Below are positions 1-8,265 of a stretch of DNA of 11,799 nt, piece by piece (the first letter of the stretch is position 1; the number at the start of each line of letters is the position of its first letter). Position numbers and translations under genes: made by a program. Origin of the DNA: a virus. Taxonomy: Duplodnaviria; Heunggongvirae; Uroviricota; Caudoviricetes. The stretch is taken from the IMG/VR virus record IMGVR_UViG_2562617151_000001, positions 1 through 11,799 of that record; one strand, written 5' to 3'. The notes below the pieces were generated by a model that did no database searches, was not told the origin of the DNA, and worked only from the letters and a program-made list of their open reading frames with translations.

Positions 1-1254
1 ATGCTGGAACAAATGGGCATTGCCGCGAAGCAAGCCTCGTATAAATTAGCGCAACTCTCCAGCCGCGAAAAAAATCGCGTGCTGGAAAAAATCGCCGATG
101 AACTGGAAGCACAAAGCGAAATCATCCTCAACGCTAACGCCCAGGATGTTGCTGACGCGCGAGCCAATGGCCTTAGCGAAGCGATGCTTGACCGTCTGGC
201 ACTGACGCCCGCACGGCTGAAAGGCATTGCCGACGATGTACGTCAGGTGTGCAACCTCGCCGATCCGGTGGGGCAGGTAATCGATGGCGGCGTACTGGAC
301 AGCGGCCTGCGTCTTGAGCGTCGTCGCGTACCGCTGGGGGTTATTGGCGTGATTTATGAAGCGCGCCCGAACGTGACGGTTGATGTCGCTTCGCTGTGCC
401 TGAAAACCGGTAATGCGGTGATCCTGCGCGGTGGCAAAGAAACGTGTCGCACTAACGCTGCAACGGTGGCGGTGATTCAGGACGCCCTGAAATCCTGCGG
501 CTTACCGGCGGGTGCCGTGCAGGCGATTGATAATCCTGACCGTGCGCTGGTCAGTGAAATGCTGCGTATGGATAAATACATCGACATGCTGATCCCGCGT
601 GGTGGCGCTGGTTTGCATAAACTGTGCCGTGAACAGTCGACAATCCCGGTGATCACAGGTGGTATAGGCGTATGCCATATTTACGTTGATGAAAGTGTAG
701 AGATCGCTGAAGCATTAAAAGTGATCGTCAACGCGAAAACTCAGCGTCCGAGCACATGTAATACGGTTGAAACGTTGCTGGTGAATAAAAACATCGCCGA
801 TAGCTTCCTGCCCGCATTAAGCAAACAAATGGCGGAAAGCGGCGTGACATTACACGCAGATGCAGCTGCACTGGCGCAGTTGCAGGCAGGCCCTGCGAAG
901 GTGGTTGCTGTTAAAGCCGAAGAGTATGACGATGAGTTTCTGTCATTAGATTTGAACGTCAAAATCGTCAGCGATCTTGACGATGCCATCGCCCATATTC
1001 GTGAACACGGCACACAACACTCCGATGCGATCCTGACCCGCGATATGCGCAACGCCCAGCGTTTTGTTAACGAAGTGGATTCGTCCGCTGTTTACGTTAA
1101 CGCCTCTACGCGTTTTACCGACGGCGGCCAGTTTGGTCTGGGTGCGGAAGTGGCGGTAAGCACACAAAAACTCCACGCGCGTGGCCCAATGGGGCTGGAA
1201 GCACTGACCACTTACAAGTGGATCGGCATTGGTGATTACACCATTCGTGCGTAA
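1..1254 (+). CDS. proA: gamma-glutamyl phosphate reductase (glutamate-5-semialdehyde dehydrogenase), complete, 417 aa
   Basis: ORF 1..1254 translates to [30 protein letters not shown]...[13 protein letters not shown], which I recognise as E. coli ProA at full length (aldehyde dehydrogenase fold). Its position immediately upstream of thrW matches the K-12 arrangement proA-thrW. Confidence 0.96.
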
Positions 1255-1368: not shown

Positions 1369-1444
1369 GCCGATATAGCTCAGTTGGTAGAGCAGCGCAT
1401 TCGTAATGCGAAGGTCGTAGGTTCGACTCCTATTATCGGCACCA
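1369..1444 (+). tRNA. thrW: tRNA-Thr, anticodon CGU
   Basis: 76-nt sequence GCCGATATAGCTCAGTTGGTAGAGCAGCGCATTCGTAATGCGAAGGTCGTAGGTTCGACTCCTATTATCGGCACCA read directly: 7-bp acceptor stem GCCGATA/TATCGGC, D-loop AGTTGGTAG, anticodon loop TTCGTAA (anticodon CGT), T-arm GGTTCGACTCC, encoded CCA. thrW is the known integration target of P22-family integrases. Confidence 0.95.
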
Positions 1445-1458
1445 TTTAAATCAATAAG

Positions 1459-2622
1459 TTACACATCATTAGTACCTTCCTTATTTTTTGACTGGGACAA
1501 ATTTGGGACCGATGGGTTCAGGATCGAGTCTATTTGCCGTGCGTGTTCGGTAAGGTGATTAGGTGCGAGGTGAGCATATCGACGAACCATTTCGATAGAC
1601 TCCCAGCCTCCCATTTCCTGTAACACTGACAACGGGACACCGGCTTGAACCAGCCAACTTGCCCAGGTGTGTCTCAAGTCATGAAATCTGAAATCATCAA
1701 TACCAGCTCGTCTCAGCGCCGCTTTCCAGGCTGTGTTTGCGTCATATCGCATCTTCCTGACTGTTGGCGCTTTCGTTCCGTCTGGTTTGGTACAGCTTTC
1801 CTTGTACACAAATACCCAATGGTGATGATTCCCGATTTGTTTTTTCAATACGCGACATGCAGTATCATTCAGCGCAACGCCAATTGCGCGGTTTGATTTA
1901 CTCTCTTCCGGGTTTATCCATGCCACCCGGCGCTGCATATCTATTTGTTGCCATTCAAGGTTGATGATGTTCGAGCGTCTTAAGCCTGTTGCCAGTGCAA
2001 ATTCAACAACAGACTTTAATGGCTCCGGACATTCATCAATCAGCCTTTGTGCTTCATGAGGCTCCAGCCAGCGGATCCGTTTATTCTTTGGTTGAGGCAC
2101 TTTAATAATTGGTGCCTTATCCAGCATTTTCCATTCACGCTCTGCGGCTCTTAGTAGGGCCTTTATAAATGAAAGATGCGTAGCCTTCGTTGCAACGGAC
2201 GCTGGTTTTGGCGTGTATTCTGGAACAGGTTTCCCTTTTTTTCTGCATGCTTCTGCCCTGAGTTTCCAGTTTTCCTCATGACGCCGGTTCGTCATTTTCT
2301 GCATTGCTGAATAAATTTTTGATTCAGTAATGTCTCTTAGTTGCATTCCTGCGAAATGTTGAAGCCAGAATCCGATCCGGCTTTTGTCATCGTCCAGTGA
2401 TTTTTTATGTGCTTTCTCTTCAAGCCACCTGACACACGCTTCCTCGAACGTTATATCAGGTATTTCACCAAGTTTGCTGACCCGCCATGCTTCAGCCTTT
2501 AGCTTGTCATGGAGTTCTGTCGCCTGCCTTTTGTCCTTTGTTCCAAGAGACTGTTTAAATCTTTTACCGTTCGGCAATGTGAAACTGGCGTACCATATTT
2601 CACCTCTGCGGAAGAGTGACAT
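1459..2622 (-). CDS. int: phage integrase, tyrosine recombinase, P22 Int-like, 387 aa
   Basis: ORF translation [47 protein letters not shown]...[39 protein letters not shown] matches my recollection of P22 integrase almost end to end, including the C-terminal R..H..R..Y catalytic region. It is adjacent to the tRNA target; stop TAA at 1461-1459. Confidence 0.95.
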
Positions 2623-5891: not shown

Positions 5892-6326
5892 ATGTCCGGT
5901 AATATCTATACGCTGTACAAATCCCACTGTGAAAATGTTGGAAAGTATCGGGGCATTGAAATCAGTGGGGTAGTGTCATCAGTCGAAATAAGCAAAGTTG
6001 AATCAAGGGCAACATTACTTACTCTTCTGGACCTTGTCTTACATGAGCACCGGAAGAAATTCGGCACTCCCTATAATCAGTTGAATGGGAAAAAAGCTCT
6101 GGTTCACCTTATTCTGATGAAGCATCACTGGATGCCAAAACAGATTAATGAGATGAAATTTGATGAACTTCTTCTTTCAATTCAGGATGAATTCACGCTT
6201 GATAAAATAAGCGTAACCGCCCAGAAATTTTTAGATTATCGAGACTGGAGATCACAAATTCATCACTTTGATGATTTTGACGAAAATGAATGGGATCCTA
6301 ATTTGTCTGCACAATATCTAAAGTAA
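5892..6326 (+). CDS. hypothetical protein, 144 aa, no recognisable family; moron-like, opposite strand to the early-left operon
   Basis: ATG 5892 preceded by AAGGA with a 6-nt spacer; stop TAA 6324-6326. Protein MSGNIYTLYKSHCENVGKYRGIEISGVVSSVEISKVESRATLLTLLDLVLHEHRKKFGTPYNQ... has protein-like composition (K/E/D/H-rich, ordinary hydrophobic content). AT-rich codon usage contrasts with the neighbouring GC-rich block. Confidence 0.7.
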   Translation: MSGNIYTLYKSHCENVGKYRGIEISGVVSSVEISKVESRATLLTLLDLVLHEHRKKFGTPYNQLNGKKALVHLILMKHHWMPKQINEMKFDELLLSIQDEFTLDKISVTAQKFLDYRDWRSQIHHFDDFDENEWDPNLSAQYLK

Positions 6327-6504
6327 CATCCTGTGATAAAACCGTGATTTCCTGATCCAGTTTTTTTAAGGAGTCTATTGTTTCCTGTCGATAAGACAGC
6401 ACTTCACGAAGCTGGTTTATAGCTGCCAGCTTCTTTGCCATCCACTCGTAAATTTCCTCATTTGTGTATCCGGGCGCGACGATTTTGGGTTCTGTTTTGT
6501 GCAT
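6298..6504 (-). CDS. hypothetical small protein, 68 aa; first gene downstream of the putative P_L (the position of N)
   Basis: Start at MHKTEPKIVAPGYTNEEIYEWMAKKLAAINQLREVL... (ATG 6504-6502), preceded by a strong SD GAGGAGG about 7 nt upstream; the track ORF begins 5 codons earlier. The 3' end overlaps the 144-aa ORF by 29 nt (convergent). Confidence 0.6.
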   Translation of the reverse strand: MHKTEPKIVAPGYTNEEIYEWMAKKLAAINQLREVLSYRQETIDSLKKLDQEITVLSQDVTLDIVQTN

Positions 6505-6562
6505 TTCACACCTCCTCAAGTTATCAGTTACTTGTTGATGGGGACCAGATTGTTAAAGAGCT

Positions 6563-6590
6563 AAGCGTCCTGTAGGGCGCTTTTTTGTTG
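6563..6590 (+). terminator. intrinsic (rho-independent) terminator-like hairpin plus T-tract
   Basis: AAGCGTCC-TGTA-GGGCGCTT stem (8 bp including one G-U) followed by TTTTTT at 6581-6586. On the minus strand the stem is preceded by an A-tract and followed by a U-poor sequence, so it is mainly plus-strand and at most weakly bidirectional. Confidence 0.55.
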
Positions 6591-6669
6591 CTAACGAATC
6601 ACCCTAGACTTTATATGCCCCAGGCGGCTACTTCGTGGGCGTCCTGCCTGTTCGTTATCTTTGATATAA

Positions 6670-6740
6670 AATCTAACTTAACTTAGTTATTATGGCAAGA
6701 GAAAACACCAAACTTTTCTTAGTTCGGTGCCTTAGTTAGA
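6670..6740 (-). promoter_or_regulatory. putative O_L / P_L region (leftward early promoter with repressor operators)
   Basis: Heptamer CTTAGTT occurs at 6682, 6718 and 6731, the same motif as in the cI-cro intergenic region. Minus-strand candidate promoter: -35 TTGCCA (complement of 6693-6698), 17-nt spacer containing AACTTAGTT, -10 TAGATT (complement of 6670-6675). Confidence 0.4.
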
Positions 6741-6751
6741 GAAGAGAGGTC

Positions 6752-7378
6752 TTAGAGTTCGTATTGAACTCCTTTGACTACACCAATGATAAGGCAATTA
6801 CCATTGATAGGGATGTTGGGATACCGAGGATTTAATGGCACTAAAAACTTTTGAGGGCCATCGATGACTAATTTTTTTACTGTAGCTTCGTTTGTTCCAT
6901 CAAGTCGAGCGATGACTATTTTTCCATGACGAGGTTCTGCATCTGGATCTACAATCACTGTTGCGCCTTCTGGTATTGTTGGGAGGCCATTAGGGTTAGT
7001 CATGGAGTCACCTTTAACCTCTAATGCAAATGAGTTATCACCAATCTTTAATGATGTATCTACCCACTTGTCCACTTCACTAAACACTTCTGCTGCCCTG
7101 CACTCAGTAAACTGCCCAGCCTGAACCCACGATATTACAGGAACTCTGCGCATGTTTGTGACGAGTTTGCCTTCAAACTCAGCACCATAAAGAATGTAAT
7201 CTATTGACGTATTGAAGAACTTCGCTAATTTCGAAAGTGCCTCCCCACCAGGGGTATTGATGTCTTTCTCCCAGTACCCCACAGCAACGTCGCTTACTCC
7301 ACAAAATTTACCCAATTCTTTCTGGGACGTTCCGGTAACTCTTCTCAGAGCTTTTATACGCTGACCAACCGTTTCCAT
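6752..7378 (-). CDS. cI: prophage repressor, CI / P22 C2-like (N-terminal HTH plus C-terminal S24 LexA-like autopeptidase domain), 208 aa
   Basis: ORF METVGQRIKALRRVTGTSQKELGKFCGVSDVAVGYWEKD... (HTH) ... ISWVQAGQF...LEVKGDSMTNP...ATVIVDPDAEPRHGKIVIARLDG.EATVKKL...GNCLIIGVV. Ser-Lys dyad context and overall architecture match the lambda CI / P22 C2 class. Divergent from cro. Confidence 0.92.
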   Translation of the reverse strand: METVGQRIKALRRVTGTSQKELGKFCGVSDVAVGYWEKDINTPGGEALSKLAKFFNTSIDYILYGAEFEGKLVTNMRRVPVISWVQAGQFTECRAAEVFSEVDKWVDTSLKIGDNSFALEVKGDSMTNPNGLPTIPEGATVIVDPDAEPRHGKIVIARLDGTNEATVKKLVIDGPQKFLVPLNPRYPNIPINGNCLIIGVVKGVQYEL

Positions 7379-7396
7379 AGGAGCACCATTTCTTGA

Positions 7397-7468
7397 ATTG
7401 CTAAGTAATCTTAGTTTTTATTGACCAAAGATAGATTTGTAATTAGCATCTAATAAAACTTAGTTTGG
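7397..7468 (+). promoter_or_regulatory. putative O_R / P_R region between cI and cro
   Basis: Near-palindrome CTAAGTAATCTTAG at 7401-7414; CTTAGTT at 7410 and 7459; 9-mer AACTTAGTT at 7457-7465 is identical to 6680-6688. Candidate P_R: -35 TTGACC 7421-7426, 17-nt spacer, -10 TAGCAT 7444-7449, then SD GGAGG 7467-7471 and cro ATG 7476. Confidence 0.45.
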
Positions 7469-7475
7469 AGGGCGT

Positions 7476-7676
7476 ATGACAACTGACGATATCGAAAGCT
7501 ACTTCGGCAGTATTGAGAAAGTTGCTGCTTTTTTCGGCATAACAACTGAAGCCGTTTATCAGTGGCGAAACCGTCCGGGCCAGTTAATTCCAAAAGGACG
7601 TGCAGCAGAAGCTGCATATAGAACTTGCGGACGGTTGCCATTTAAACCTGAGCTTTATGAAAAATCTAATGGATAA
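7476..7676 (+). CDS. cro: Cro-like transcriptional regulator (Cro / YdaS-type HTH), 66 aa
   Basis: [69 protein letters not shown]; a small HTH protein divergently transcribed from the repressor, with an SD in front. Confidence 0.85.
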   Translation: MTTDDIESYFGSIEKVAAFFGITTEAVYQWRNRPGQLIPKGRAAEAAYRTCGRLPFKPELYEKSNG

Positions 7677-8265
7677 ATCGATTAACAGAAACCACAGAAC
7701 GATGAGGCTAACCGTGGGTAAGCATCACTGGAAAGTAGAAAAACAGCCTGAGTGGTACGTGAAAGCTGTCAGAAAAACTATCGCAGCGTTGCCGGGTGGT
7801 TACGCTGAAGCAGCTGACTGGCTGGATGTAACAGAGAACGCATTATTTAACCGCCTTCGTGCCGATGGCGATCAGATTTTCCCGCTGGGATGGGCAATGA
7901 TTTTGCAACGTGCTGGTGGAACTCACTTCATTGCTGACGCTGTGGCGCAGTCTGCAAATGGCGTCTTTGTGTCTCTTCCTGATGTCGAGGATGTGGACAA
8001 CGCCGATATCAACCAACGCCTGCTGGAGGTCATTGAACAGATCGGCAGTTATTCAAAACAGATTCGTTCAGCAATTGAAGACGGTGTAGTGGAACCGCAT
8101 GAGAAGACAGCAATTAACGACGAGCTGTACCTCTCAATTTCGAAGCTGCAGGAGCATGCAGCACTGGTCTACAAAATTTTTTGCATTTCAGAAAGTAATG
8201 ACGCCCGCGAGTGTGCAGCTCCGGGCGCCGTGGCGTGTCGTGACTGTGGAGAAACTAACGCATGA
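7657..8265 (+). CDS. CII-like phage regulatory protein (YdaT / CP76-type); start uncertain
   Basis: ORF ...[73 protein letters not shown]...; lies directly after cro as in lambdoid layouts. Candidate starts are ATG 7657 and ATG 7669 (the latter 5 nt upstream of the cro stop); the track's 7600 start is a GTG only 1 nt after an SD-like AAAGGA and is unlikely. Confidence 0.65.

Follow-up and report, generated by a model that had tools for sequence, protein, structure and literature searches.

CTTAGTT repeats flanking a phage repressor gene are probable operator half-sites of a P22-like immunity switch

The heptamer CTTAGTT recurs on both sides of a CI/C2-type repressor gene in the 11,799-nt stretch of phage DNA analysed here, referred to as the window throughout. 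These repeats are, with good confidence, operator half-sites in a lambdoid immunity switch. The interpretation given in the initial annotation thus appears essentially right, but the functional unit is best described as a dyad of 14 bp, CTAAG-N4-CTTAG (18 bp with flanks), of which CTTAGTT constitutes the better conserved right half. The region as a whole looks like an ordinary, apparently undescribed variant of the genetic switch of phage P22. Coordinates of all features are given in Table 1.

All five copies of CTTAGTT reported in the initial annotation (6682, 6718, 6731, 7410 and 7459) were recovered, each on the plus strand, as were the identical 9-mer AACTTAGTT at 6680-6688 and 7457-7465 and the near-palindrome CTAAGTAATCTTAG at 7401-7414, the 5-bp inverted arms of which are perfect. 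One extra copy was found at 2336-2342 inside the integrase gene (1459-2622, minus strand), resulting in six copies in the whole window versus 1.09 expected, a number reached in none of 200 shuffles. A stricter null was provided by a first-order Markov model trained on the intergenic stretches 6657-6751 and 7379-7475 themselves; the two stretches hold five copies versus 0.10 expected and none of 20,000 simulations reached five. The clustering is far beyond chance. Short A/T-rich words do recur in A/T-rich intergenic DNA such as this (67-68% A+T), and the copy in the integrase gene as well as the lack of conservation of the copy at 6731 would fit accidental recurrence of such a word. This explanation has next to no probability, as it is refuted by the composition-matched simulations, by the ranking of sites with a position weight matrix (PWM) and by a survey of related loci, where the sites are conserved across genera at 63-90% repressor identity.

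The placement of operators on either side of the repressor gene in the initial annotation stands; the heptamer as the unit gives way to the dyad. The right halves of the dyads are all CTTAG(TT), whereas the left halves read CTAAG, CTAAT, CTAAC, CAAAC and CAAAG, an asymmetry plausibly due to constraints on four left halves that coincide in part with a promoter hexamer or with the stem of the terminator. The bare pattern CTAAGNNNNCTTAG, allowing up to two mismatches, is not enriched in the whole window (5 matches versus 3.3 expected) and reliance was consequently placed on mismatch level, clustering, PWM scores and conservation. What makes the operator pattern significant is how the sites cluster, how few mismatches they have and how well they are conserved. 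Training of the PWM used relatives only and left out mEp460 and the window itself as well as every OR2 site. Out of 11,782 positions in the window the five best were OL1, OR1, OR3, OL2 and OR2, in that order, and five matches of equal strength were obtained in none of 500 simulations, although for the four strong sites the test is not independent because the sites of the relatives are orthologous to those of the window. Both an O_L and an O_R set are accordingly present as had been proposed, with three sites rather than two in O_R and two supported sites rather than three in O_L.

Table 1. Putative operators, predicted promoters and genes of the immunity region
Feature	Coordinates	Strand	Description	PWM score (bits)
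OL1 operator	6671..6688		ATCTAACTTAACTTAGTT; core 6673-6686, CTAAC-TTAA-CTTAG; overlaps PL spacer and -10	25.8
PL promoter (predicted)	6670..6698	-	-35 TTGCCA 6698->6693, 17-nt spacer, -10 TAGATT 6675->6670; consensus scan	
OL2 operator	6707..6724		ACCAAACTTTTCTTAGTT; core 6709-6722, CAAAC-TTTT-CTTAG; upstream of PL -35	19.0
Hairpin and U-run, likely intrinsic terminator of repressor transcript	6702..6733	-	just past repressor stop codon; overlaps OL2	
CI/C2-type repressor gene	6752..7378	-	208 aa; Pfam HTH_3 (E 1.1e-10) and Peptidase_S24 (E 9e-28)	
OR3 operator	7399..7416		TGCTAAGTAATCTTAGTT; core 7401-7414, perfect CTAAG-TAAT-CTTAG	20.8
PR promoter (predicted)	7421..7449	+	-35 TTGACC 7421-7426, 17-nt spacer, -10 TAGCAT 7444-7449; consensus scan	
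OR2 operator (degenerate)	7424..7441		ACCAAAGATAGATTTGTA; core 7426-7439; between PR -35 and -10	9.9
OR1 operator	7448..7465		ATCTAATAAAACTTAGTT; core 7450-7463, CTAAT-AAAA-CTTAG	23.3
cro gene	7476..7676	+	66 aa; Pfam P22_Cro (E 4.4e-11)	
CP76/CII family ORF	7714..8265	+	cII-like gene downstream of cro	
Immunity cassette	6657..7689		PL/O_L, repressor gene, O_R/PR and cro; boundaries from SfIV comparison	

The three O_R sites occupy the space that separates the repressor gene from the divergent cro gene, ordered OR3-OR2-OR1 with centres 25 and 24 bp apart. OR3 sits 4 nt upstream of the PR -35 on the side of the repressor gene and its half-sites are kept in 13 relatives, around a centre of TAAT, CAAT or TTAT. 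OR1, which spans the last part of the PR -10 together with the expected start point, likewise keeps its half-sites in the relatives around AAAA, CAAA, ATAA, AACA or TTAA. OR2 does not contain the heptamer and was hence overlooked in the initial annotation. It is weak, scoring 9.9 bits versus a null maximum averaging 7.8 bits, and roughly 0.23 matches of that strength are expected per window. Its counterparts read CTAAT-AAAG-ATTAG in Rahnella and CTAAG-ATAG-ATTGA in mEp460, and it is positionally equivalent and similar to OR2 of P22, ACTAAAGATTCCTTTAGT. In the -35 of PR, TTGA is invariant across the relatives, in most of which the -10 reads TAATAT. A consensus scan of the O_R minus strand for a repressor maintenance promoter found nothing. 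Two candidate -10 elements were considered, neither of them convincing. The first, TAGCAA (7403->7398), is a poor and unconserved match and would bring OR2 to about -42, as in lambda; the second, TAAGAT, lies within OR3 and would place OR2 over the -35. The 22-nt leader between OR3 and the repressor start codon carries a Shine-Dalgarno-like GGTG.

On the left side, OL1 is nearly invariant across the 13 relatives, and the -35 of PL reads TTGACC in phage LLS and most of them. Counterparts of OL2 are CTAAT-AAAA-CTTAG in Yersinia proxima and CTAAA-TAAA-CTTAG in Providencia. The RNA of the predicted terminator hairpin folds at -15.1 kcal/mol (z = -2.4; 3 of 200 shuffles fold equally well) and carries a compensatory change in phage LLS, where CACC/GGTG has become CATC/GATG; a covarying hairpin that overlaps OL2 could account for part of the OL2 conservation. 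The third left copy of the heptamer (6731..6737), located between the repressor stop codon and the terminator stem, found no support as an operator. It has no partner half-site, reads TTTGGTT in mEp460, the DNA of which is 94.5% identical over the region, is unconserved elsewhere and ranks 401 with a PWM score of -13.6 when taken as a full site. P22 and phage 21 possess an OL3, whereas here neither its position nor the surroundings of 6731 gave a score above background or any conservation.

The same-strand orientation of all five heptamers and the 13-bp spacing of the copies at 6718 and 6731 would also be expected of head-to-tail direct repeats recognized by another protein, be it Cro alone, a CII/CP76-like regulator or a host factor, and the P2 C repressor is a precedent (PMC2995052). 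We consider this very unlikely, as the sole tandem pair depends on the unconserved copy at 6731 and every conserved heptamer in the relatives has an inverted partner at a fixed distance of 4 bp. These partners improve towards CTAAG in more distant species, and the DNA-binding domain of the repressor is homologous to a known binder of the same dyad geometry.

Conservation of the motif together with the repressor in related prophages, the test by which the initial annotation could have been refuted, extends to at least nine other genera. An alignment of 13 immunity regions from E. coli, Enterobacter, Kosakonia, Kluyvera, Rahnella, Serratia, Yersinia, Providencia and Proteus revealed invariant columns at the half-sites and promoter hexamers, with variation in the central 4 bp and the spacers. 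Related loci were further compared by the recognition helix of their repressors. Where this helix reads ..VGYWE(K/R), all 20 loci, which come from other genera (repressor identity 63-90%), carry in their flanks 1-5 CTAAG dyads that deviate at no more than one position, and the P22-type dyad TTAAG-N4-CTTAA at the same mismatch level is absent save one single match. Where it reads ..SQWE(K/R)E, CTAAG dyads were found in none of seven loci and 3-4 TTAAG-N4-CTTAA dyads in each instead. Other recognition helices accompany other dyads. The pairing of TTAAG with S-N-V-A-I-S-Q-W is seen in P22, phage 21 and prophages of Photorhabdus and Xenorhabdus, and that of CTAAG with S-D-V-A-V-G-Y-W in the present cassette and 20 relatives. 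CTAAG and the helix S-D-V-A-V-G-Y-W-E-K together appear to define an immunity specificity apart from that of P22 and phage 21 (TTAAG; S-N-V-A-I-S-Q-W-E-R).

This covariation also bears on a rival reading in which the conserved blocks, instead of being bound by the repressor, belong to the promoters or to the terminator of the repressor gene, for instance as UP-like A/T tracts or -10/-35 context, with the heptamer recurring on account of similar promoter architecture. OL1, OR1 and OR2 do overlap promoter hexamers, OL2 overlaps the hairpin with its compensatory change, and the intergenic regions are rich in A+T. Half-sites nevertheless track the recognition helix (CTAAG, TTAAG, TGTAGG, GTTTAA) on a constant promoter layout, and phage SfIV combines another dyad with promoters in unchanged positions. 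Moreover, OR3, the most perfect dyad, falls outside the PR hexamers, and the hairpin loop (..CTTA) is conserved although the terminator does not need it. Such an origin of the blocks is thus highly improbable.

In the C-terminal domain of the repressor, which matches that of lambda cI, QAGQ, GDSMT and KKL align to A111-G112, S149 and K192, and the N-terminal domain aligns gap-free to that of P22 C2 (E 1.6e-10). The P22 protein binds TTAAG half-sites 4 bp apart, with Val33 packing on thymine methyl groups (PMC5175364), and the valine matching Val33 of this 'valine cleft' is conserved in the present repressor. Features of a P22 c2-like DNA-binding domain are found here in the 5-bp half-sites, the freely varying 4-bp centre and the conserved valine. 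The solved structures nearest to the present Cro are N15 Cro and P22 Cro. Its recognition helix T-T-E-A-V-Y-Q-W-R-N aligns with T-P-G-A-V-Y-Q-W-L-Q of N15 Cro and has Ala at H3 and Gln at H6, residues that the published Cro 'evolutionary code' (Hall, Roberts & Cordes 2019, PMC6649833) associates with A at +5 and G at +6. Both would be in keeping with CTAAG under the half-site numbering of P22 and N15, which we infer to apply. H1 Thr with C at base +2 is outside the published binary pairs Pro/T and Gln/A (PMC6649833), and the N15 half-site is TTATAG as opposed to CTAAG here. Repressor domains, divergent cro and cII-like genes, multiple dyads and an exchangeable module together mark the region as a probable lambdoid switch of the CI/C2 type.

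Comparison with P22, which the initial annotation had suggested, bore out the geometry but not the half-site, making the present cassette heteroimmune to its relatives P22 and phage 21. The P22 c2 operators, TTAAG-N4-CTTAA, have the same 5-bp half-sites and 4-bp centre, and the OR1-3 and OL1-3 annotated for P22/phage 21 (record OL657228) are of the same 18-bp length. The order of elements is also common, running OR3, 4 nt, TTGAC(T/C), OR2, -10, OR1 on the right and OL1, -35, OL2 on the left, with OL1, OL2, OR3 and OR1 each at the position of its P22 namesake. Phage 21 has an annotated terminator just after the repressor gene, in the same place as the hairpin described above. Repressors of P22/phage 21 are 47-49% identical to the present one over the whole protein with alike domain organisation, and Cro belongs to the P22_Cro family in both. 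The half-site is however (AA)CTAAG here versus (AT)TTAAG in P22/phage 21, the consensus of which, ATTTAAG-N4-CTTAAAT, is not matched. The HK620 repressor is 35.7% identical. Shared with lambda are the divergent orientation of cI and cro, an O_R of three sites about 24 bp apart over PR, an immunity region exchanged as a block, and a self-cleaving S24 C-terminal domain with aligned Ala-Gly, Ser and Lys. The lambda operators differ in being 17 bp long with a symmetry axis through a base pair and in their unrelated sequence, the lambda Cro fold differs from that of the present Cro (PMC6649833), and unlike in lambda there is no rexAB between the repressor gene and O_L.

Taken as operators, the 14-bp dyads would be bound by a dimer of the 208-aa repressor and probably by Cro as well, with one helix-turn-helix contacting each 5-bp half-site and the individual bases of the 4-bp centre presumably not being read. 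If the switch works as in P22 and lambda, repressor occupying OR1/OR2 and OL1/OL2 would silence PR and PL in the lysogen, OR3 would act in autoregulation at the repressor promoter and as the site favoured by Cro, and RecA-stimulated self-cleavage at the conserved Ala-Gly site would lead to prophage induction.

A covarying structured RNA candidate of 67 nt was observed at the start of the PL transcript (6591-6657, minus strand). The left operon here begins with this element and a 73-aa ORF, as opposed to the boxA/nutL and N-like gene of phage 21. The candidate is absent from Rfam 15, a search of which returned only the tRNA at the gathering threshold and noise at E-value thresholds. Membership of the HK022 put family was rejected, as a covariance model of the candidate had no matches in HK022 23000-32500 or HK639 22000-40000, the annotated putL-like RNA of HK639 included. 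HK022 put and the candidate have in common only their location immediately downstream of PL and some short strings.

The proposal that the motif sets immunity specificity is in line with a comparison to the heteroimmune phage SfIV. SfIV matches the window at 6000-6656 (99.5%) and 7690-8200 (98.4%) and replaces exactly the cassette in between, which holds all the sites; the repressor, cro and operators of SfIV are different ones. Of 5426 complete E. coli genomes, 517 (roughly 9.5%) carry the present cassette, which also occurs in the isolated phages vB_EcoM-689R6, vB_EcoS-569R4, Kati, mEp460_4F5 and LLS. Public annotation of its genes reads 'LexA family protein', 'Cro/CI family transcriptional regulator', 'repressor protein cI', 'Cro repressor' or hypothetical, and operator features are absent from the public records checked. 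A full-text literature search for the exact operator strings found no paper, and for mEp460 genome-survey papers only.

A more far-reaching joint reading, which we regard as tentative and rather doubtful, is that the cassette represents a minimal natural re-specification of one repressor scaffold (Asn->Asp, Ser->Gly and Gln->Tyr changing the outer half-site base that is read from T to C) and that OL2 is of dual use as operator and terminator loop. The re-specification takes two or three changes of helix residues to be enough; if true, the rule of recognition would be simple and the repressor/operator pairs orthogonal. The concept of lambdoid switches is unchanged by the operators described here. 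The P22 c2 system, well understood in structural terms, gains in the cassette a naturally occurring variant of its specificity, and the operators are mutational targets for virulent or inducible derivatives. Their definition may allow superinfection immunity groups to be predicted among thrW-integrated SfV-like prophages.

The initial annotation had proposed the heptamer CTTAGTT as an operator motif on both sides of the repressor gene, at coordinates that were all right when rechecked on the sequence. Six copies were counted in the window against 1.09 expected. The two intergenic stretches account for five of them, where their own composition predicts 0.10, and none of 20,000 simulations reached five. 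While the heptamer marks real conserved sites, each conserved copy makes up only the right half of a dyad whose centre is fixed at 4 bp. Both sides of the repressor gene do carry such dyads, but one of the five, OR2, lacks the heptamer, and the copy at 6731 is unsupported as nothing is conserved at that position in relatives. An 18-bp position weight matrix was trained on relatives only, with neither the window nor mEp460 nor any OR2 site in the training set. Its five best matches among 11,782 positions were OL1 (25.8), OR1 (23.3), OR3 (20.8), OL2 (19.0) and OR2 (9.9), with the copies at 6731 and 2336 scoring -13.6 and -0.5 as full sites. The mean maximum in simulated sequences was 7.8, and none of 500 contained five equally good matches.

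Features of the window and of its operator regions (cores are given for OR1, OR3, OL1 and OL2)
Feature	Position	Strand	Description
Host gene	1-1254		aldehyde-dehydrogenase family
tRNA-Thr(CGT)	1369-1444		
Phage integrase	1459-2622	minus	
Excisionase-like ORF			prophage part
Early-left genes			prophage part
Terminator-like site	6223→6208	minus	after phrog_1744 ORF
First PL ORF	6298-6519	minus	phrog_1744, function unknown
OL1	6673-6686		CTAAC-TTAA-CTTAG
PL, predicted	-35 6698→6693; -10 6675→6670	minus	TTGCCA, 17 nt, TAGATT; consensus scan
OL2	6709-6722		CAAAC-TTTT-CTTAG
Repressor	6752-7378	minus	208 aa; HTH_3 and Peptidase_S24 domains
OR3	7401-7414		CTAAG-TAAT-CTTAG
PR, predicted	-35 7421-7426; -10 7444-7449		TTGACC, 17 nt, TAGCAT; independent consensus scan
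OR2	7426-7439		CAAAG-ATAG-ATTTG; degenerate, no heptamer, exactly between OR3 and OR1
OR1	7450-7463		CTAAT-AAAA-CTTAG
Cro	7476-7676	plus	66 aa; P22_Cro family
CII/CP76-family gene	7714-8265		
Replication genes			prophage part

OR1 begins within the last two bases of the predicted PR -10 and spans the expected start point, OR2 occupies the spacer and extends into the -35 by its last three bases, and OR3 stops 4 bp short of the -35 on its upstream side. On the left, OL1 lies within the spacer and -10 of predicted PL and OL2 lies upstream of its -35. Relatives have better hexamers in the same places (PR -10 TAATAT; PL -35 TTGACC). Following the repressor stop codon, 32 nt form a hairpin and then a U-run (6702-6733, minus strand; z = -2.4), with a compensatory change from CACC/GGTG to CATC/GATG in phage LLS; it probably serves the repressor gene as intrinsic terminator. 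OL2 makes up the loop and 3' stem of the hairpin. The left halves of all sites but OR3 overlap a promoter hexamer or hairpin stem, which is plausibly why only right halves are uniformly conserved.

Conservation of the motif together with the repressor, on which the initial annotation had made its proposal depend, was evaluated in a scan of one genome per species that gave 79 loci with a repressor relative. In 20 of these (from Enterobacter, Kosakonia, Kluyvera, Serratia, Rahnella, Yersinia, Rouxiella, Providencia, Proteus and two metagenome-assembled genomes) the repressor was 63-90% identical and the recognition helix ..S(D/G)V(A/S/T)VGYWE(K/R).. was kept. With at most one mismatch allowed, all 20 contained one to five dyads in the flanks of the repressor gene (150 bp upstream, 130 bp downstream). 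In the aligned O_R and O_L regions, half-sites and promoter hexamers form invariant columns and the central 4 bp vary freely (TAAT, CAAT and TTAT in OR3; AAAA, CAAA, ATAA, AACA, TTAA and TTAT in OR1). Weaker sites were nearer to the consensus in distant species: OL2 reads CTAAT-AAAA-CTTAG in Yersinia proxima, OR2 CTAAT-AAAG-ATTAG in Rahnella and OR1 CTAAG-ATAA-CTTAG in Yersinia.

Other helices were paired with other dyads. The seven loci with the helix ..SQWE(K/R)E.. (Photorhabdus, Xenorhabdus) each had three to four P22-type TTAAG-N4-CTTAA dyads, and no CTAAG-type dyad at ≤1 mismatch was found in their gene flanks; TGTAGG-N4-CTTACA accompanied ..NRVTVTGWEK... The proposal of the initial annotation thus withstood the comparison that it had named as a possible refutation. 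Distant family members in Morganella and Proteus (loci L030, L033), Edwardsiella (L037), and Photorhabdus and Xenorhabdus (L024-L031) keep the geometry of the 4-bp centre with different half-sites, GTTTAA..TTAAAC pairing with SKGTVSQWVN and TTAAG-N4-CTTAA with SHVAISQWEK. These pairs are raw material for a table of helix-to-base recognition.

The 66 N-terminal residues of the repressor matched the P22 C2 N-terminal domain best among solved structures (E 1.6e-10, no gaps), with the helix VSNVAISQWER in P22 C2 and VSDVAVGYWEK in the window. P22 C2 has six operators of consensus ATTTAAGATATCTTAAAT, with half-sites TTAAG around an uncontacted 4-bp centre and Val33 packing on thymine methyl groups (PMC5175364); the same valine is conserved in the window repressor. 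Comparison with P22, as the initial annotation had suggested, revealed the same layout with a different half-site. Both systems run OR3, 4 nt, TTGAC(T/C), OR2, -10, OR1, SD and ATG on the right and OL1, 4-5 nt, -35, 7-8 nt and OL2 on the left, and OR2 is similar (ACCAAAGATAGATTTGTA in the window, ACTAAAGATTCCTTTAGT in P22). The nearest named phage repressors were phage 21 cI (48.8%) and P22 c2 (47%), which have helix and operators in common; in the phage 21 record, OR and OL sites of 18 bp are annotated, and the repressor gene is directly followed by an annotated terminator. Based on this comparison of helix, operators and layout, the system would work like the P22 switch, yet falls outside the P22/21 immunity group. 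The window Cro is closest to those of N15 and P22. Its position H3 is Ala and its position H6 is Gln, residues that go with A at +5 and G at +6 in the published Cro code (PMC6649833). With the half-site numbering inferred here, these bases would agree with CTAAG.

Positions 1-2622 are a prophage end integrated beside the tRNA-Thr gene; the arrangement of host gene, tRNA and integrase corresponds to the proA-thrW site of SfV-like Shigella phages. Near-identical DNA was found in Escherichia phages vB_EcoM-689R6, vB_EcoS-569R4 and Kati, and immunity-region identity was 94.5% for mEp460_4F5 and 75.7% for phage LLS. In the heteroimmune Shigella phage SfIV, identity to the window is 99.5% over 6000-6656 and 98.4% over 7690-8200; between these flanks the phage has an unrelated repressor, cro and GGTACA-type dyads. 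The mosaic joints are sharp at 6656/6657 and 7689/7690. The exchanged segment (6657-7689) reaches from 14 bp outside OL1 to 13 bp past the cro stop codon and contains all five sites. It was present in 517 of 5426 complete E. coli genomes, chromosomal in every case. mEp460 has the cassette in common, with a left flank that differs beyond about 6610.

A 67-nt structured-RNA candidate (6591-6657, minus strand) adjoins the cassette on its outer side, at the 5' end of the predicted PL transcript. It has a closing stem P1, an invariant core AGGCAGGACGCCCACGAAGUAGCC and a hairpin, P3, whose 12-nt loop GGCRUAUGAAGW is conserved. It also occurs beside different repressors in heteroimmune phages and prophages, namely SfIV, SfV, SfII, ST64B, mEp237, phiNP, ZF40 and Yersinia, Photorhabdus and Xenorhabdus prophages, and a viral-contig scan gave at least 120 loci with 104 distinct versions. 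In 41 distinct versions, pairing in closing stem and hairpin was 95.8%, with compensatory changes in 10 pairs; covariation was 0.437 against 0.106 when shuffled (none of 500 reached 0.437) and 0.02-0.08 with partners slid. The element had no match in Rfam 15, and its covariance model did not match HK022 putL/putR or the annotated HK639 putL-like RNA. No N-like antiterminator gene was recognised, the first PL ORF being phrog_1744. On account of this, its position and the terminator-like site downstream (6223→6208), it is a reasonable hypothesis that the element may be a put-like RNA antiterminator or leader.

A convergent plus-strand ORF (5892-6326, phrog_5286) has the 29 nt at its 3' end in common with the phrog_1744 ORF. 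A G+C-rich hairpin at 6563-6582 (within 6548-6582) reads as a plus-strand intrinsic terminator; in the minus-strand PL transcript, GCUCUUUAACAA (complement of 6548-6559), a look-alike of rrn/nut-type boxA, comes after the hairpin. In the nut sites of lambda and P22 the two stand in the opposite order. P22 (L166 1465-1505) and phage 21 (L165 1462-1507) have a short hairpin AGC-AGGAC-GCU at the extreme 5' end of the PL transcript, just past the annotated pL start, that has a GCAGGACGC core in common with the 67-nt element; these hairpins matched the covariance model weakly (10.7 bits, E 0.36, and 8.3 bits, E 2.7). The HK639 record (L289 15911-15970) annotates an 'M3-like RNA' after the cII-like gene and a 'putL-like antiterminator RNA' after pL, neither resembling anything in the window.

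Sequence and comparison together establish the five dyads, where these lie with respect to the predicted promoters, that they co-vary with the recognition helix, and the module boundaries. By homology to P22 and lambda, the repressor would bind the dyads as a dimer and repress PR and PL, filling OR1 and OR2 cooperatively, with OR3 serving autoregulation and Cro; SOS induction would act through the conserved Ala-Gly, Ser and Lys of the repressor. Neither a literature search nor the phage records checked yielded a paper or an annotated operator for this immunity type. It is an uncharacterised specificity within a very well understood family, and as such no surprise to the specialist.
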